From an uncultured Candidatus Saccharibacteria bacterium (GTDB taxonomy: Bacteria > Patescibacteriota > Minisyncoccia > Portnoybacterales > UBA2143): 64,000 bases of DNA. The stretch covers positions 21,294-85,293 of the forward strand of contig CAYYLD010000001.1 in assembly GCA_964472495.1 (NCBI GenBank), read 5' to 3'. The position numbers were made by a program, and so were the translations under genes. The notes beneath the pieces were generated by a model, which had not been told where the DNA came from, searched no databases, and was given only the letters and a program-made list of their open reading frames with translations. This document shows, piece after piece, positions 3,220-45,952 of this stretch (positions are counted from its first letter, which is position 1; each line of letters starts with the position of its first letter).

Positions 3220-3741
3220 GTGATTGAAATGGGTAAGCTTAAGGATGTTTTCAAAAAAGGAGCAGGGGTAGTCGGAGATATAGCTAAAGAAGCGGCTGGT
3301 GAAGGAATCGGAAAACAAATAGGAGGCGCGGCAGGAAAAAGGGTCAGCGAACGGGTTTTTGAGGATAAAAGAGGGGAACTGCTAATCGATATCTTGGCAA
3401 TCTCAGAAAATAACGAGCATCTTCTCCGGCGACACAAAAAAGCTTCGGAAAACCATACTGAAAACCGATTTGTCAACCTTCTTTGCAAGATTCCCAAAGA
3501 GCAGCGGAAGGAAACTCTCAAGATACTCAATGGGATGGAAGATTCTCAATTCGAGCAATACTTGGACCTTCTTGAGAACAATCTCTTTACACAATTTTTC
3601 CAACGAATTGGTCATCTTCTCGGAAAAGAATTAAAAGAGCTCGACGAAGGAGCGGCTGCCGGGTTAAGAGAGTTAGCCGCTAAAATAAGGGCAAGCTGCG
3701 AGGAAGGCGGTACGAGACATAAAGGGGGTGATGCGAGATGA
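3220..3741 (+). CDS. hypothetical protein (Gly/Ala-rich N-terminus, helical C-terminus)
   Basis: 173-aa ORF with a good RBS. Its stop overlaps the next start (ATGA). No motif I recognise. GC is visibly higher than in flanking genes. Confidence 0.55.
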   Translation: MIEMGKLKDVFKKGAGVVGDIAKEAAGEGIGKQIGGAAGKRVSERVFEDKRGELLIDILAISENNEHLLRRHKKASENHTENRFVNLLCKIPKEQRKETLKILNGMEDSQFEQYLDLLENNLFTQFFQRIGHLLGKELKELDEGAAAGLRELAAKIRASCEEGGTRHKGGDAR

Positions 3742-4742
3742 AAGAATTTATAAAAGCTTTCTTTGAGGACTTTCTGCCAGCCATCTGGTTGGCCGTCTTC
3801 CAAAAAGGTCCTCAAAAGATGGATAAGTTAGTTAAGTGGGTTAAACCAAGAGCGAAAAAAATCTGGAAGTGCTTTCTAGTCCTAGCGCTCATCCTGATAA
3901 TCATCCCAATCGTAGCAGTGGACTTGGCGCTCCTGTTCAAAGCAGGCTGGATAGCTGCTTTGATTGGAACCCTTCTGGCCTTAATCTTAATGGTGCTTTT
4001 TTTCAAGCCAGTCTATCTGGGCTTAGCTGCGTTGTTGGGAATAACCTGGGAGGTTCTCTACCTGCGGATTAAAGAGGCGCCAAAAACTGGTGTAAGATAC
4101 GGTAAATTATACTTGGATATTGGACTGGGTATTCTGCTCTGGGAGCTAATTATCCTTTCTTATATATCTATTTTTCCTGTCTGGAATAATCCTCAAGCAC
4201 TTCCTGTATTAGCTTTGTTTTCTCTTCTAGCGGGTTTGATGGTTTATGTCTGGAAGTTCGAGAAAATTTTCTTCCGGAAATTCGCTTACAGATTCGTAGT
4301 TTTGGTCTTAATCGTGGAAACACTCAGCTTTTTCTTCCCGTTGACTAGCCAGGCCATCAATAAAAAAATGCCAGTTGTCGATAGAAAGATATCCAATAGC
4401 ATTAAGGCATTCGGCACTTCCCGCGAGCCACCCGTGAAAAAGGATAGCTCTAAAGAACCATCTCGCCGGCTCTCCGGAATCTTCGTTCTGCCCAAGGGCG
4501 TAAAGGTGACTAAGGACATCAATGGACATGAGTATGACTATCTGGAGGGAGAAAGAGGACATTTCCAACAACTCGGCCCAACAGGACAATTTACCGTATT
4601 GAATAAGAAGATATCTTCTCTAGTAATCGATAAGCCAACCTATACAACTGACCCAGCCATCTCTGATGGCCAAGTTAAGCTAATGGCTACCGGCGGAAAG
4701 GATGTGATAGTTGAATTAACAATCCTTCCGCCGTGTTCCTAA
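3738..4742 (+). CDS. hypothetical membrane protein (about 6 TM helices + about 130-aa soluble C-terminal domain)
   Basis: 334-aa ORF translationally coupled to the previous gene. Hydrophobic N-terminal two thirds. No recognisable motif. Confidence 0.55.
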   Translation: MKEFIKAFFEDFLPAIWLAVFQKGPQKMDKLVKWVKPRAKKIWKCFLVLALILIIIPIVAVDLALLFKAGWIAALIGTLLALILMVLFFKPVYLGLAALLGITWEVLYLRIKEAPKTGVRYGKLYLDIGLGILLWELIILSYISIFPVWNNPQALPVLALFSLLAGLMVYVWKFEKIFFRKFAYRFVVLVLIVETLSFFFPLTSQAINKKMPVVDRKISNSIKAFGTSREPPVKKDSSKEPSRRLSGIFVLPKGVKVTKDINGHEYDYLEGERGHFQQLGPTGQFTVLNKKISSLVIDKPTYTTDPAISDGQVKLMATGGKDVIVELTILPPCS

Positions 4743-17246: not shown

Positions 17247-18260
17247 ATGGCTAAAAAACCAACCATTGAAGAAATCAGAAAGTACCTTAACGAGTATGAT
17301 CCACTTGGTCTGAGGGGAGCGTCAATTGACTTAATTGGCGCTCACAACCATATTATTTACCGATTAGCCAGGGCTGGCAAATCCTTTTGTCTGCGGATGA
17401 TAAATCCGGAAAGCTATCGGGCCGGCGAGTGGCTGACTATCCCTGAAGAATTTACTATCCTTCACTACCTGAAACTCACCGGCTTAGGGCCAATACCCTA
17501 TTTTGTTGACCCGGAACGATTCAGACTCCCATTAACTATCCAAGAGTTCGTCTCGGAAATCACCTACTTTAATAATTTGAAGCCGTTCAACGAAGAGCAT
17601 CTGAAGGCAGCCGCCAAGGCGATCGCCTTACTAAACTCCCTAAACATTGACCCGATCAGATTCCCTTTCCGAAAAGGTTTTACCCGCTACTCTTATCTGA
17701 CCAGCTTGGAAACCTGGCGAGAACGCCTGGCGATAATTAAAAAGTCCGAACAGAAAGATATTCTGGAATGGGTAGACAAACTCAAAGAAGTAGTCAAGCA
17801 GGCAAAGCCGATTTTGGAAGGATTTGAACCTCTCTTGAGAGAGAGTGGTTCGCTTTTTAACTTCGACGGCGCTCACTGCGGAAATACTTTTTTGCGAGAA
17901 AAGTCAGGCAAAGTTGTTTTCCTTGACTGGCAGAAAGTAAGCTACGGAGATCCCAGTTTTACCCTGGCCCGCTTCTTAACCTCTATTGGAAAAAAAGGGG
18001 AGATTCCGGACGGAGCTAAAGAGTTGATGATTGAGGCCTATACTCAAACGGCGGCCTATCATAACTTGCTTAATAGTCATCCCAAATTAGCAGTAAATTT
18101 TGAGAAGCTGGTTGACCAGCGCCTCTTTGAACGCCAGATAGCTGACCTCATCTGGGTGGTCTGGGACTATACCAAACAAGTCAAAACCGAACCAGTTGAG
18201 GAAGCAACTAGCGTAGTTGCTCGCTACCAAAGAGTTATCGAGATGCTGAGACAATACTGA
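17247..18260 (+). CDS. phosphotransferase-family kinase (APH/choline-kinase-like fold)
   Basis: Catalytic-loop-like FDGAHCGNTF and the LDWQKVSYGDPSFTLA (DWE..GDP) motif typical of aminoglycoside/choline/homoserine kinase-type phosphotransferases. Strong RBS AAAGGAGGG. Confidence 0.6.
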   Translation: MAKKPTIEEIRKYLNEYDPLGLRGASIDLIGAHNHIIYRLARAGKSFCLRMINPESYRAGEWLTIPEEFTILHYLKLTGLGPIPYFVDPERFRLPLTIQEFVSEITYFNNLKPFNEEHLKAAAKAIALLNSLNIDPIRFPFRKGFTRYSYLTSLETWRERLAIIKKSEQKDILEWVDKLKEVVKQAKPILEGFEPLLRESGSLFNFDGAHCGNTFLREKSGKVVFLDWQKVSYGDPSFTLARFLTSIGKKGEIPDGAKELMIEAYTQTAAYHNLLNSHPKLAVNFEKLVDQRLFERQIADLIWVVWDYTKQVKTEPVEEATSVVARYQRVIEMLRQY

Positions 18261-18287
18261 GACACTCTCAATTTTTTCTGGAAAACA

Positions 18288-18324
18288 AACGGTTGCCGGG
18301 AAACAAACCGACAACCGTTTTTTA
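18288..18324 (+). terminator. Rho-independent terminator
   Basis: AAACGGTTGCCGG-gaaacaaa-CCGACAACCGT with one mismatch, followed by TTTTTTATTT. Confidence 0.65.
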
Positions 18325-18397
18325 TTTGACCCCGCATCAGAGAAATCTCGGGGCGGGGTTTGACCAAAACGCTTAAAAATGGTAATTTAGGCATTAA

Positions 18398-18488
<91 letters not shown>

Positions 18489-25088: not shown

Positions 25089-25162
25089 CGGGCTGTGGCC
25101 TAGCGGTTTAAGGCACACGCATGGGGTGCGTGGGATCGCGGGTTCGAATCCCGCCAGCCCGA
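25089..25162 (+). tRNA. tRNA-Pro (anticodon GGG)
   Basis: Acceptor CGGGCTG/CAGCCCG (C1-G72 as in tRNA-Pro), anticodon stem CACGC/GCGTG, loop ATGGGGT, T-loop TTCGAAT. No encoded CCA. Confidence 0.75.
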
Positions 25163-25288
25163 CTGGACAAAGCTCGAACCTTTTTCGAGCAACAATTTCT
25201 TACCCCAGAACCCTTCCAATTTTTTCGTCGCCTATTTGCCTTGTTCGTAACCGAGAAGCAAAGGTGGGACGAGCCAAAAATTATTGAA
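25162..25288. repeat. left arm of a perfect 127-bp inverted repeat (partner 30675-30801)
   Basis: 25162-25288 equals the reverse complement of 30675-30801 base for base by manual alignment. It begins at the tRNA-Pro discriminator base and contains the hairpin GCTCGAA-ccttt-TTCGAGC. Confidence 0.85.
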
Positions 25289-30674: not shown

Positions 30675-30801
30675 TTCAATAATTTTTGGCTCGTCCCACC
30701 TTTGCTTCTCGGTTACGAACAAGGCAAATAGGCGACGAAAAAATTGGAAGGGTTCTGGGGTAAGAAATTGTTGCTCGAAAAAGGTTCGAGCTTTGTCCAG
30801 T
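30675..30801. repeat. right arm of the perfect 127-bp inverted repeat (partner 25162-25288)
   Basis: See the left arm. Divergence starts immediately outside both ends (25289 a vs g; 25161 g vs t). Confidence 0.85.
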
Positions 30802-30873
30802 AATTGCGACCAAAAGAAAAACGCCTGGTCAGGGTGTTTTTTTATACCCTTAACAAGGCGCTGTATTTAATGC

Positions 30874-31086
30874 TCAAGGTGAACTGATTTTAATACTTTT
30901 TATTCGGCCACCCCGCTTCTTCATCTTGCCTTGAATCCGGCGAAATTTAATATGACGACATTTAACATTGTTAATTCCCCCGCAATTAGGACAATTTACT
31001 AAAAAACTAGGGTTTCCTTCTCCTTTTCTCTTGACTCTGGAGATATCAATTTCATTACCGCAAGACCGACATCTTATCCAGTCCAT
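30874..31086 (-). CDS. zinc-ribbon miniprotein (CxxC-x22-CxxC), paralog C
   Basis: 70 aa MDWIRCRSCGNE...VNCPNCGG. GGGGAGG RBS. Basic C-terminal tail. Confidence 0.55.
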   Translation of the reverse strand: MDWIRCRSCGNEIDISRVKRKGEGNPSFLVNCPNCGGINNVKCRHIKFRRIQGKMKKRGGRIKSIKISSP

Positions 31087-31408
31087 TATCCTCCCCTTGC
31101 TTAGACCACCATTGTATTTTATATTTCCAGCCAGTCAGCGTTTTTCTTGTTCCATCAAATGAACATTCTTCTGCCCAAGGGGGAGCTCTTAAAAAATGTC
31201 GATGATTCCTACTGCGGTGCACCTGGATACTTTCGTCAACATGACCAGAAACAAAAAAGGGGGCGAAATAGCCATTACTTAATCCAGCGAAAAAAACACC
31301 TTCTGTATGCCGAGTAAGTCCGTCATTCGGCTTTAAACGACACCTTGTCCCAGGCGTTTCAGGAATTTTCTCGTCTTCGGCTAATCTGTGAAATGCTGGT
31401 ACTCCCAT
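31055..31408 (-). CDS. hypothetical protein (117 aa; His/Asp-rich segment FFVSGHVDESIQVHRSRNHRH)
   Basis: The track ORF extends to 31465; I chose the ATG at 31408, which has the strong RBS GGAAAGGAGGAGAGG. No confident family assignment. Confidence 0.45.
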   Translation of the reverse strand: MGVPAFHRLAEDEKIPETPGTRCRLKPNDGLTRHTEGVFFAGLSNGYFAPFFVSGHVDESIQVHRSRNHRHFLRAPPWAEECSFDGTRKTLTGWKYKIQWWSKQGEDNGLDKMSVLR

Positions 31409-31619
31409 ACCTCTCCTCCTTTCCGGGTTTATAAAAAAGAACAAATTAAATGGCTTTACTGACAAGACATTTTTTTCTTAAAATTTCGCTCAAAAAATAG
31501 GTGGTTGTCCGCAAGTTAACGCCAAAGCGTTAACCAATATAGGATTCCCTGTCTATGATGATTAATCTGAAATCTTAAAGAAAAATCTTGGACAGTAAAG
31601 CCATCCTTATTATACCGTC

Positions 31620-31811
31620 TCACCAAATACTTGTCAACGGGTCGGTCGCGGCAATTGTCTCAATCCCTTGACCAAATTGTTTAATCATGTTTCTGGCTCG
31701 ACAAAGAGGACATTTGACTATCCGGCTATCTTCAAAACCAGGATTGACTTCTAGAGGTATAGATTCTTCTCCGCACCACCAACACCTTACTTTGATTTCT
31801 TCCTTTTCCAT
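31620..31811 (-). CDS. zinc-ribbon miniprotein (CxxC-x21-CxxC), paralog B
   Basis: 63 aa MEKEEIKVRCWWCGEE...VKCPLCRARN. RBS GAGAGG. Confidence 0.55.
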   Translation of the reverse strand: MEKEEIKVRCWWCGEESIPLEVNPGFEDSRIVKCPLCRARNMIKQFGQGIETIAATDPLTSIW

Positions 31812-31831
31812 CTTTTCTATTCCTCTCTGTT

Positions 31832-31990
31832 CTAAAATTCGTTTGGATTAATAACAATAACCTTGCCGTTCTTTTTCTTCTCAACTATGTTCTTAAAGCC
31901 GCAACGGGGACATTCAATTGCCCTTTTTTTGTCCAAAGAACCGTCCTTGAATATAATTCTTTTCCGACAACCCTGACATTCTAACTTCAT
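31832..31990 (-). CDS. zinc-ribbon miniprotein (CxxC-x18-CxxC), paralog A
   Basis: Start trimmed to MKLECQGCRK... (ATG 31990), which has the RBS GAAAGGAGGGAGGG. The longer track ORF would include the upstream terminator U-run. Confidence 0.55.
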   Translation of the reverse strand: MKLECQGCRKRIIFKDGSLDKKRAIECPRCGFKNIVEKKKNGKVIVINPNEF

Positions 31991-32029
31991 TCCCTCCCTC
32001 CTTTCTGTTGTTAAAATGTTAAAGGACAA

Positions 32030-32055
32030 AACAAAAAACTGACCGGAGAGGTCAG
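32030..32055 (-). terminator. Rho-independent terminator/attenuator on the minus strand, immediately upstream of zinc-ribbon gene A
   Basis: Minus-strand reading GCTGACC-tctcc-GGTCAG then TTTTTTGTTTTG. It sits about 190 nt after the adenylate-kinase-like gene and about 40 nt before the RBS of the zinc-ribbon gene. Confidence 0.55.
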
Positions 32056-32252
32056 CTTCTTTAAATCTTCTAATATATCTTAATTAAAATGCTCAAAAAG
32101 CTGATCTCTCGAGGTCAGTAAAGTAGGCAAAATAGAACCAAAAACCGGACGGATTTTGACTGAAATCAGTAAAAATATCTAGTTTATTCAAGCTGTCTAA
32201 CATATTGATTAATTTAATCTTTAACCGAATGAGTGTCAAGGGGATAATCTGG

Positions 32253-45789: not shown

Positions 45790-45834
45790 TAACTTTATCC
45801 TATCAGAATCTTTTTAAAAATAAAAGCCATTATT

Positions 45835-45940
45835 AAAGGGCGTACCTTAAAAGTACACCCTTGCTCAACCATCACTCTTAAAATATTCCTTAATCAATAA
45901 ATTTTAGATGGAAAGGGTGTACTTTTAAGGCACGCCCTTT
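45835..45940. repeat. two copies of a 28-bp palindromic element (45835-45862 and 45912-45940), mutually inverted, 27/28 identical
   Basis: AAAGGGCGTACCTTAAAAGTACACCCTT versus the reverse complement of AAGGGTGTACTTTTAAGGCACGCCCTTT. Each copy is itself a hairpin (GGGCGTAC-cttaaaa-GTACACCC). Confidence 0.7.
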
Positions 45941-45952
45941 AAACCTAATTGT

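Follow-up and report, generated by a model that had tools for sequence, protein, structure and literature searches.

The window analysed here, a 64,000-nt stretch of DNA, is part of a chromosome of the Patescibacteria (candidate phyla radiation, CPR; Paceibacteria-like) and carries on its minus strand a 1.2-kb stretch encoding three zinc-ribbon miniproteins (ZR-A, ZR-B and ZR-C) and a protein named UNK. The public genomes nearest to the window were Patescibacteria metagenome-assembled genomes, and several metagenomes held identical copies of the locus. Genes for an ADK-like kinase, an MBL-fold protein, ComEC and NrdG lie on one flank; the other is occupied by a cassette encoding a histidine kinase, a response regulator, a dockerin protein and an Ig-like protein. 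Related loci compared with the window are designated by L-numbers, those of the sister species being L010, L100 and L106. CPR genomes are tiny, few regulatory RNAs or regulators are known from them, and no CPR bacterium is known to use a leader-peptide attenuator.

The original prediction, made from the sequence alone, described this stretch as a cluster of four minus-strand genes, each preceded by a strong Shine-Dalgarno (SD) site, in a region more GC-rich than its surroundings. All four open reading frames (ORFs) were found at the claimed places in the ORF listing, with purine-rich SD sites upstream of ZR-A (GGAGGGAGGGA), ZR-B (GAGAGGA), UNK (GGAAAGGAGGAGAGG) and ZR-C (GGGGAGGA). The base composition contradicted the prediction: the GC content of the region was 0.396, below the 0.412 of the whole window, and 77% of segments of its size were at least as GC-rich. 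The ORFs are thus real, but they do not make up one cluster, since a promoter and a structured non-coding RNA (ncRNA) separate ZR-B from UNK. Because this independent RNA gene splits the set, the four genes are not a single operon; the stretch consists of three small units, namely an attenuated ZR-A/ZR-B pair, a structured RNA gene and a UNK/ZR-C pair (Table 1).

Table 1 Features of the locus, in the order of minus-strand transcription. Positions are those of the window.
Feature	Position	Strand	Source
Promoter-like site TTGACA-17-TAAATT for leader, ZR-A and ZR-B	32211..32239	-	Promoter scan, 10/12
Leader ORF, 36 aa, MLDSLNKLDIFTDFSQNPSGFWFYFAYFTDLERSAF	32093..32203	-	ORF
Attenuator segments R1 (32113-32118), R2 (32095-32110), R3 (32046-32062), R4 (32039-32044) and U-run (32033-32038)	32033..32118	-	
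ZR-A, 52-aa C4 zinc ribbon, isoelectric point (pI) 9.75	31832..31990	-	ORF and SD
ZR-B, 63-aa C4 zinc ribbon (CWWCG...CPLC), pI 5.0	31620..31811	-	ORF and SD
ncRNA promoter TTGACA-17-TATAAT, perfect sigma-70	31609..31637	-	Promoter scan, 12/12
Rod-shaped ncRNA, roughly 160 nt	31442..31606	-	Folding and covariance model; missed by the original prediction
UNK, 117 aa from ATG, basic (pI 9.06), all-beta, lineage-restricted family	31055..31408	-	ORF
ZR-C, 70-aa zinc ribbon, pI 10.74, charge +13.5, basic tail	30874..31086	-	ORF and SD
Weak hairpin with an A-run and a U-run on its sides, bidirectional terminator-like, closing the UNK/ZR-C unit	30812..30843	.	Sequence inspection

Upstream of ZR-A, the original prediction had recognised a hairpin followed by a U-run, had stated that no promoter could be accommodated between this hairpin and the ribosome-binding site, and had suggested control by read-through or attenuation. 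The hairpin is real, being called by the terminator scan at 32061-32033, and no promoter fits the gap; what the prediction lacked was a promoter and a 36-aa ORF farther upstream. The -35 and -10 hexamers of this promoter were kept in L010 and L103. In the window, the leader ATG begins 7 nt past the -10 box, so that the leader mRNA may be leaderless. Seven of eight consecutive codons in the last third of the leader encode Phe, Tyr or Trp (FWFYFAYF). Homologous leader ORFs were found in L103, a third species (..GFRFYFAYFTDRGDQLF), and in L020 (..GLFFWFSFYFTDLEGWSFAV), each with its stop codon just past segment 2. Between the window and L103, the GFxFYFAYFTD stretch differed by four synonymous changes and one non-synonymous change, and a compensating indel preserved both the frame and the position of the stop codon. 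The leader ORF of the sister species (L010) was frameshifted.

Folding of the free leader RNA paired R1 with R4 and R2 with R3, giving one long hairpin right before the U-run. In constrained folding, blocking R1 left R2:R3 alone with R4 free, and blocking both R1 and R2 resulted in the R3:R4 terminator. These three states were obtained for both the window and the L103 leaders. With the aromatic codons abutting R1 on its 5' side and the stop codon abutting R2 on its 3' side, the leader has the geometry of a stalling-dependent attenuator. The unit has a promoter, a short ORF with a cluster of regulatory codons, and mutually exclusive terminator and antiterminator structures before the genes, these structures being less clear in L020; the control by attenuation suggested in the original prediction can now be described as a leader ORF and four segments with three mutually exclusive folds. 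The extension of R2:R3 covaried among the window, L103 and L010 (GAGAG/CUCUC, GAGGAG/CUCUUC and CGGCC/GGCCG). In L020, this extension, like the whole attenuator design, was made from different sequence; there, the slot after the ncRNA (4044-4590) held an aromatic leader ORF and a terminator, followed by a gene for a 107-aa Cys-rich RanBP2-like zinc-finger protein, a module placed elsewhere than in the window. The Rfam Phe_leader model (RF01859) gave a weak match (17.5 bits, E=9; cut-off 55). Read-through of the leader is predicted to respond to the supply of charged tRNA.

The ncRNA promoter is located in the 3' end of ZR-B, its -35 box falling within the last ZR-B codons, and was kept in close and distant homologues. 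The RNA itself folded with a minimum free energy (MFE) of -59.5 kcal/mol (z = -4.5). In its consensus, helices P1, P2a and P2b close the rod and are separated by a central asymmetric loop from helix P3, beyond which come a conserved internal loop and the apical hairpin P4; a U-rich tract follows P1. P3 was nearly invariant (GGGARUCC/GGACAMCC; GGGAGUCC/GGACACCC), and the apical loops of P4 were of the YKUG type. A pairing of AGAUUC with GGGAGU proposed by RNAalifold was rejected, P2b and P3 being the helices that covary. The nearest relatives retained the RNA together with its promoter and showed compensatory changes. A covariance model (model R1) scored 171.5 bits on the window RNA and matched 52 distinct loci at E<0.01. 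Among 31 sense hits, 93.8% of the alignment cells were paired, versus 41-53% when the partners were slid, and 45 of the 48 pairs changed on both sides; no shuffle attained the observed values. The same model gave a weak match at 45828-45941, which was set aside as an unrelated 30-bp perfect hairpin. The two arms of this hairpin, on the minus strand of an intergenic gap, match perfectly over about 30 bp around a loop of about 50 nt, and its MFE was -58 kcal/mol (z = -7.6).

The ncRNA was detected by covariance model in about 50 of 80 related Paceibacteria loci. A sequence profile placed it in many more distant loci, nearly always just downstream of the ADK-like gene, and it was also present in relatives with an NDK gene at that position. 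Because the distant homologues inspected had their own promoter, in most cases a terminator hairpin and in several a convergent tRNA as the next gene, the ncRNA is best read as a stand-alone RNA gene. Within the UNK clade, L096 and L102 contained the RNA with no gene after it. Searches of Rfam 15 at the gathering threshold and at E<=10, with the window and its relatives, returned no family for this RNA, only noise from long-hairpin microRNAs, and literature searches found no described CPR or Parcubacteria RNA of this kind. Viral contigs scanned with the RNA pattern gave a single matching contig, indicating that the RNA is essentially absent there. The best explanation of these data is a conserved, housekeeping-type RNA gene of Paceibacteria that has no Rfam entry.

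In every genome with UNK, the UNK start lay about 40-60 nt past the ncRNA, except in L092, where extra hairpins intervened. Neither the promoter scan of the window nor the loci of relatives contained a promoter-like site between the ncRNA and UNK. UNK and ZR-C overlap by 32 nt in the window, and their coding regions also overlap in L010 and L090. From this organisation, UNK and ZR-C would be translationally coupled, lack a promoter of their own and be made only by read-through past the ncRNA. The hairpin closing the unit was not called by the terminator scan; in relatives, a terminator-like element of the same kind sits between ZR-C and the convergent tRNA-Pro.

UNK had no match in Pfam, NCBIfam, PADLOC or PHROGs, and word-indexed homology searches with UNK or ZR-C recovered only the query. 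An exhaustive search yielded about five genuine UNK relatives of 98-123 aa, along with spurious repeat proteins; among the latter, P0009 proved to be a tandem repeat that had been translated, including the tRNA-like stretch VGVAGFEPAT. A profile search among 5.8 billion proteins retrieved 8 clusters. Invariant aromatic, Gly, Pro and Arg positions characterise the UNK family. ZR-C homologues were identified by synteny in L010, L090, L094 and L105 (the last without UNK) and shared invariant NPS...CPxC...N.[VI]KCRH motifs and a basic tail. Both families kept their invariant motifs over at least five species. UNK and ZR-C were 24-58% identical among relatives, versus 77-82% for the neighbouring ADK-like protein. 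A small zinc-binding gene comes after UNK, and its type varies by species: short RanBP2-like fingers took the place of ZR-C in L011, L012, L104 and L101, and a CxxH...CxxC ribbon did so in L092. In the more distant L017, a gene for a 65-aa basic zinc finger (3581-3778) followed the ncRNA directly.

Relatives of ZR-A and ZR-B were sought by tblastn and ORF listing in the related loci. The sole ZR-A homologue, in the sister species, was 61.5% identical; it had lost 3 nt and bore a TGA in frame at the second Cys. Recoding of this TGA in L010, as selenocysteine or otherwise, was rejected since the deletion abolishes the CxxC spacing; ZR-B and the leader being broken in L010 as well further weakened this idea. 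L103 had no ZR-A and retained an intact ZR-B, 38-40% identical, behind the attenuator. ZR-B had lost its N-terminal half and start codon in L010, was reduced to a remnant in L011 and was missing from L012. The unit with its leader is intact in two other species. Because it has decayed in the sister species and only a remnant of ZR-B survives in L011, its distribution in the compared loci is narrow and the unit dispensable. Despite this decay, the last 33 codons of ZR-B were 88% identical in the sister species (window 31620-31640; L010 9796-9894). Since this stretch holds the -35 box of the ncRNA promoter, the apparent conservation of the ZR-B C-terminus may in part be conservation of the promoter and its upstream element.

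All three ribbons carry the CxxC...CPxC pattern noted in the original prediction, which took them for paralogues. Pairwise BLAST was weak (E values of 2e-4 to 0.013, mostly contributed by the Cys ligands), but profile-profile comparison of the three families gave 56-94% probability and a common strand after the second knuckle; a common origin is plausible, not proven. The best-scoring Pfam family for ZR-A was Zn_ribbon_Com (PF10122; gathering cut-off 22.9 bits), with 19.9 bits. The same family recurred for ZR-C (12.2) and its homologues in L094 (22.8) and L010 (17.7), and PHROGs returned weak matches to Com-type translational-regulator families. In the alignments, the four Cys form two knuckles (CxxC...CxxC) and a tail follows at the C-terminus, the whole protein being about 60 aa long; the pI values supported basic tails. 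Com of phage Mu, a C4 zinc finger of 62 aa whose tail is disordered, binds an RNA hairpin, opens a translation-inhibiting structure and activates mom translation (PMC6483171). By analogy, the ribbons are likely to be C4 zinc ribbons of the Mu Com type acting as small RNA-binding regulators. One idea of the original prediction, that of small nucleic-acid binders or regulators, fits the near-threshold Com scores, the basic character of ZR-A and ZR-C and the adjoining structured RNAs. In the window, the R1-R2 region (32100-32113) reads CCUCGAG, the L103 equivalent being CCGAGGAG. The motif reported for Com binding is CC(N)2-3GAG (PMC6483171), and the fit may be a coincidence.

Taken together, we somewhat favour a model in which three transcription units are arranged around a conserved ncRNA and yield conditionally expressed, Com-like RNA-binding miniproteins, with UNK partnering ZR-C. 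The distal promoter would drive the leader ORF, the four RNA segments, ZR-A and ZR-B. In the free leader RNA, the R1:R4 and R2:R3 hairpin before the U-run would cause termination; a ribosome reaching the leader stop codon would cover R1 and R2, let R3:R4 form and likewise lead to termination. A ribosome stalled on the aromatic codons would cover R1 only, so that R2:R3 forms, R4 stays free and transcription continues into ZR-A and ZR-B. From within the 3' end of ZR-B, the sigma-70 promoter would produce the roughly 160-nt ncRNA, which in most relatives stands alone with its own terminator. UNK and ZR-C would be expressed only when transcription continues beyond the closing helix and U-tract of this RNA. 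The targets of the ribbons would be structured RNA nearby or the leaders of mRNAs. The gene and RNA anatomy, its conservation, the covariation and the alternative folds are observed; stalling-dependent read-through, co-transcription, RNA binding and the link between the proteins and the ncRNA are the parts that we infer.

Several observations weigh against this model. Most genomes with the ncRNA have neither UNK nor a ribbon, so that an obligate RNA-protein partnership is not supported. ZR-A and ZR-B have become pseudogenes in the sister species and hence are dispensable, ZR-B is acidic in the window, and every Zn_ribbon_Com score lies under the Pfam cut-off. The UNK model was built on only 8 sequences, and the alignment used for ncRNA covariation had been fitted to the covariance model. 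Only three leader examples are intact, making their covariation anecdotal, and the MFE fold of the L020 leader with its first 12 nt blocked was not the R2:R3 state. Co-transcription and ribosome stalling are deduced from sequence.

Five other explanations were considered, and all rank below this model. The small ORFs, ZR-A and ZR-B in particular and possibly others, could be young, dispensable or decaying and functionless, born in transcribed DNA beside a strong promoter. The in-frame stop of ZR-A and the truncated ZR-B of the sister species, the remnant in L011 and the absence in L012 would be expected from such genes, as would the failure of the word-indexed searches to find anything but UNK and ZR-C themselves and the coincidence of the conserved ZR-B 3' end with the ncRNA promoter. 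The window nevertheless keeps all four Cys ligands, the SD sites and open frames; ZR-B is retained in L103 at only 38-40% identity, a dedicated and conserved attenuator lies upstream, and UNK and ZR-C keep invariant motifs across at least five species. We regard a lack of function as unlikely. It is more doubtful still that UNK and ZR-C form a toxin-antitoxin-like pair of type II, or a small conflict module, in a variable slot beside a tRNA. They resemble such systems as two small overlapping genes adjoining tRNA-Pro, patchy among close relatives (neither gene in L096 and L102; ZR-C alone in L105) and evolving fast compared with the ADK-like neighbour. They differ from them in having no toxin or antitoxin match in PADLOC, Pfam or NCBIfam and no promoter or operator region of their own. 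Moreover, their position is fixed across species whether the upstream gene is ADK-like or NDK, which indicates vertical descent, and the downstream ribbon can be exchanged for another type or stand alone. A similarly low probability is given to the idea that the ncRNA is no separate gene but a cis-acting part of the UNK/ZR-C mRNA, a riboswitch or attenuator leader. There is no room for a promoter between the RNA and UNK, and the closing helix and U-tract resemble a terminator directly before the SD site; yet most of the distant homologues inspected have a terminator of their own, several with a convergent tRNA and no downstream gene, L096 and L102 hold the RNA with nothing after it, and no Rfam riboswitch matched.

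The original prediction also considered a mobile or defence-related role plausible, given the position of the genes flush against a cassette bounded by inverted repeats (IRs). A perfect 127-nt IR, with arms at 25162-25288 and 30675-30801, surrounds this 5.4-kb cassette, and ZR-C does end 73 nt from the right arm. However, the sister species has all four genes and no cassette, only the first 39 nt of arm-like sequence being followed by M50 and HtrA genes, and in L011, L012, L090 and L094 UNK and a ribbon lie directly beside tRNA-Pro. The genes in the cassette are those for the kinase, regulator, dockerin and Ig-like proteins named above, the last a surface protein. None of the five proteins had a PADLOC match at E<=1, PHROGs gave only weak generic ribbon matches, phage tblastn with ZR-A found nothing significant and the RNA pattern occurred in one viral contig. 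Because relatives hold UNK and ZR-C, and the sister species all four genes, at the same chromosomal position without the cassette and PADLOC was empty, the mobile or defence reading is unsupported. By synteny, the cassette appears unrelated to the four genes, and we consider it very improbable that they are its cargo or accessories. The insertion point of the cassette itself falls precisely between tRNA-Pro and the ZR-C terminator. No transposase was seen, and the arms showed a 1-nt difference from each other in further samples from the same species; the segment could be invertible or a recent insertion. The least probable explanation, hardly to be entertained, is that the ribbons are zinc-binding ribosomal paralogues of the L33, L32, L28, L36 or S14 type. 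They are small, basic C4 proteins, and a genuine L28 gene sits at this position in relatives. Against this, no L33, L32, L28, L36 or S14-Z match was obtained for any ribbon at E<=10 in Pfam or NCBIfam, where the sole ribosomal model listed was S27e (E=0.12, 11.9 bits versus a cut-off of 70), and a profile search of PDB sequences gave only generic, non-significant ribbons. The data do not support a ribosomal, mobile or defence-related nature of the ribbon and UNK genes.

Returning to the three-unit model, we interpret the ancestral order as an ADK or NDK gene with the ncRNA after it and, on the far side, tRNA-Pro and L28 in convergent orientation. One clade would have acquired UNK and a basic ribbon between the ncRNA and the tRNA, and a subclade the attenuator-gated ribbon unit upstream of the ncRNA. 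The locus shows small new genes accumulating upstream and downstream of an RNA gene that is presumably strongly transcribed, and it supplies candidate RNA-protein pairs. UNK stands out as a beta-rich protein confined to one lineage, for which no related fold was detected and which is coupled to a very basic ribbon. Even if the proteins were functionless, the structured RNA, which recurs in many Paceibacteria loci, covaries strongly and lacks an Rfam entry, would be worth curating. The gating of zinc-ribbon miniproteins by a textbook-like leader-peptide attenuator would be of interest in a CPR host. A bolder proposal, which we think unlikely, is that the ncRNA is an undescribed, class-wide housekeeping RNA of 6S-like shape, that the small basic zinc-ribbon or zinc-finger proteins encoded right after it, joined by UNK in one clade, are its dedicated partners in a new small ribonucleoprotein, and that the leader, with its many aromatic codons, is the first amino-acid-sensing attenuator seen in CPR, gating zinc-ribbon miniproteins instead of biosynthetic genes.

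Two further RNA calls were recorded away from these units. ARAGORN called a transfer-messenger RNA (tmRNA) at 17997-18487 that overlaps a tRNA-Ser and has an odd tag peptide; Rfam gives the tRNA only, and the tmRNA is probably a false positive. In the related Patescibacteria locus L032, an AdoCbl-II riboswitch scored above the gathering threshold at 757-817, a noteworthy find for CPR.

With respect to known systems, the ncRNA resembles 6S RNA (RF00013) in being a rod of about 135-165 nt with paired ends and a large central asymmetric loop, expressed from its own strong sigma-70 promoter, standing alone and conserved across a class. In contrast to 6S RNA, its conservation peaks at a short helix and internal loop beside the apical hairpin, and searches with 241-nt and 1.7-kb sequences gave no Rfam 6S match even at E<=10. 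The shape is compatible with 6S RNA and not specific to it; membership of this family is not supported. Nor is membership of bacterial signal recognition particle RNA (4.5S) supported: no Rfam match to it was found at E<=10, and the apical loops of the ncRNA are of the YKUG type, not GNRA.

The leader of the ZR-A/ZR-B unit resembles the attenuator leaders of aromatic amino-acid operons (pheA, pheST) in several ways: aromatic codons are clustered in a short ORF, the pairings of its four segments exclude one another, a terminator and U-run precede the genes, and the stop codon is placed for a terminating ribosome to mask segment 2. Unlike these leaders, it gates zinc-ribbon miniprotein genes, not biosynthetic or tRNA-synthetase genes, in a CPR host; its untranslated state is R1:R4 with R2:R3 instead of 1:2 with 3:4, and its ORF of 36 aa lacks an SD site, is possibly leaderless and scores under the Rfam cut-off. 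The ribbons differ from Mu Com in their sub-cut-off scores, in the absence of a mom-like target gene or phage context at the locus, and in the additional conserved KCRH and NPS motifs of ZR-C. They resemble it in their size of 50-70 aa, in their N-terminal C4 ribbon followed by a basic or unstructured tail, and in the location of their genes beside structured RNA.

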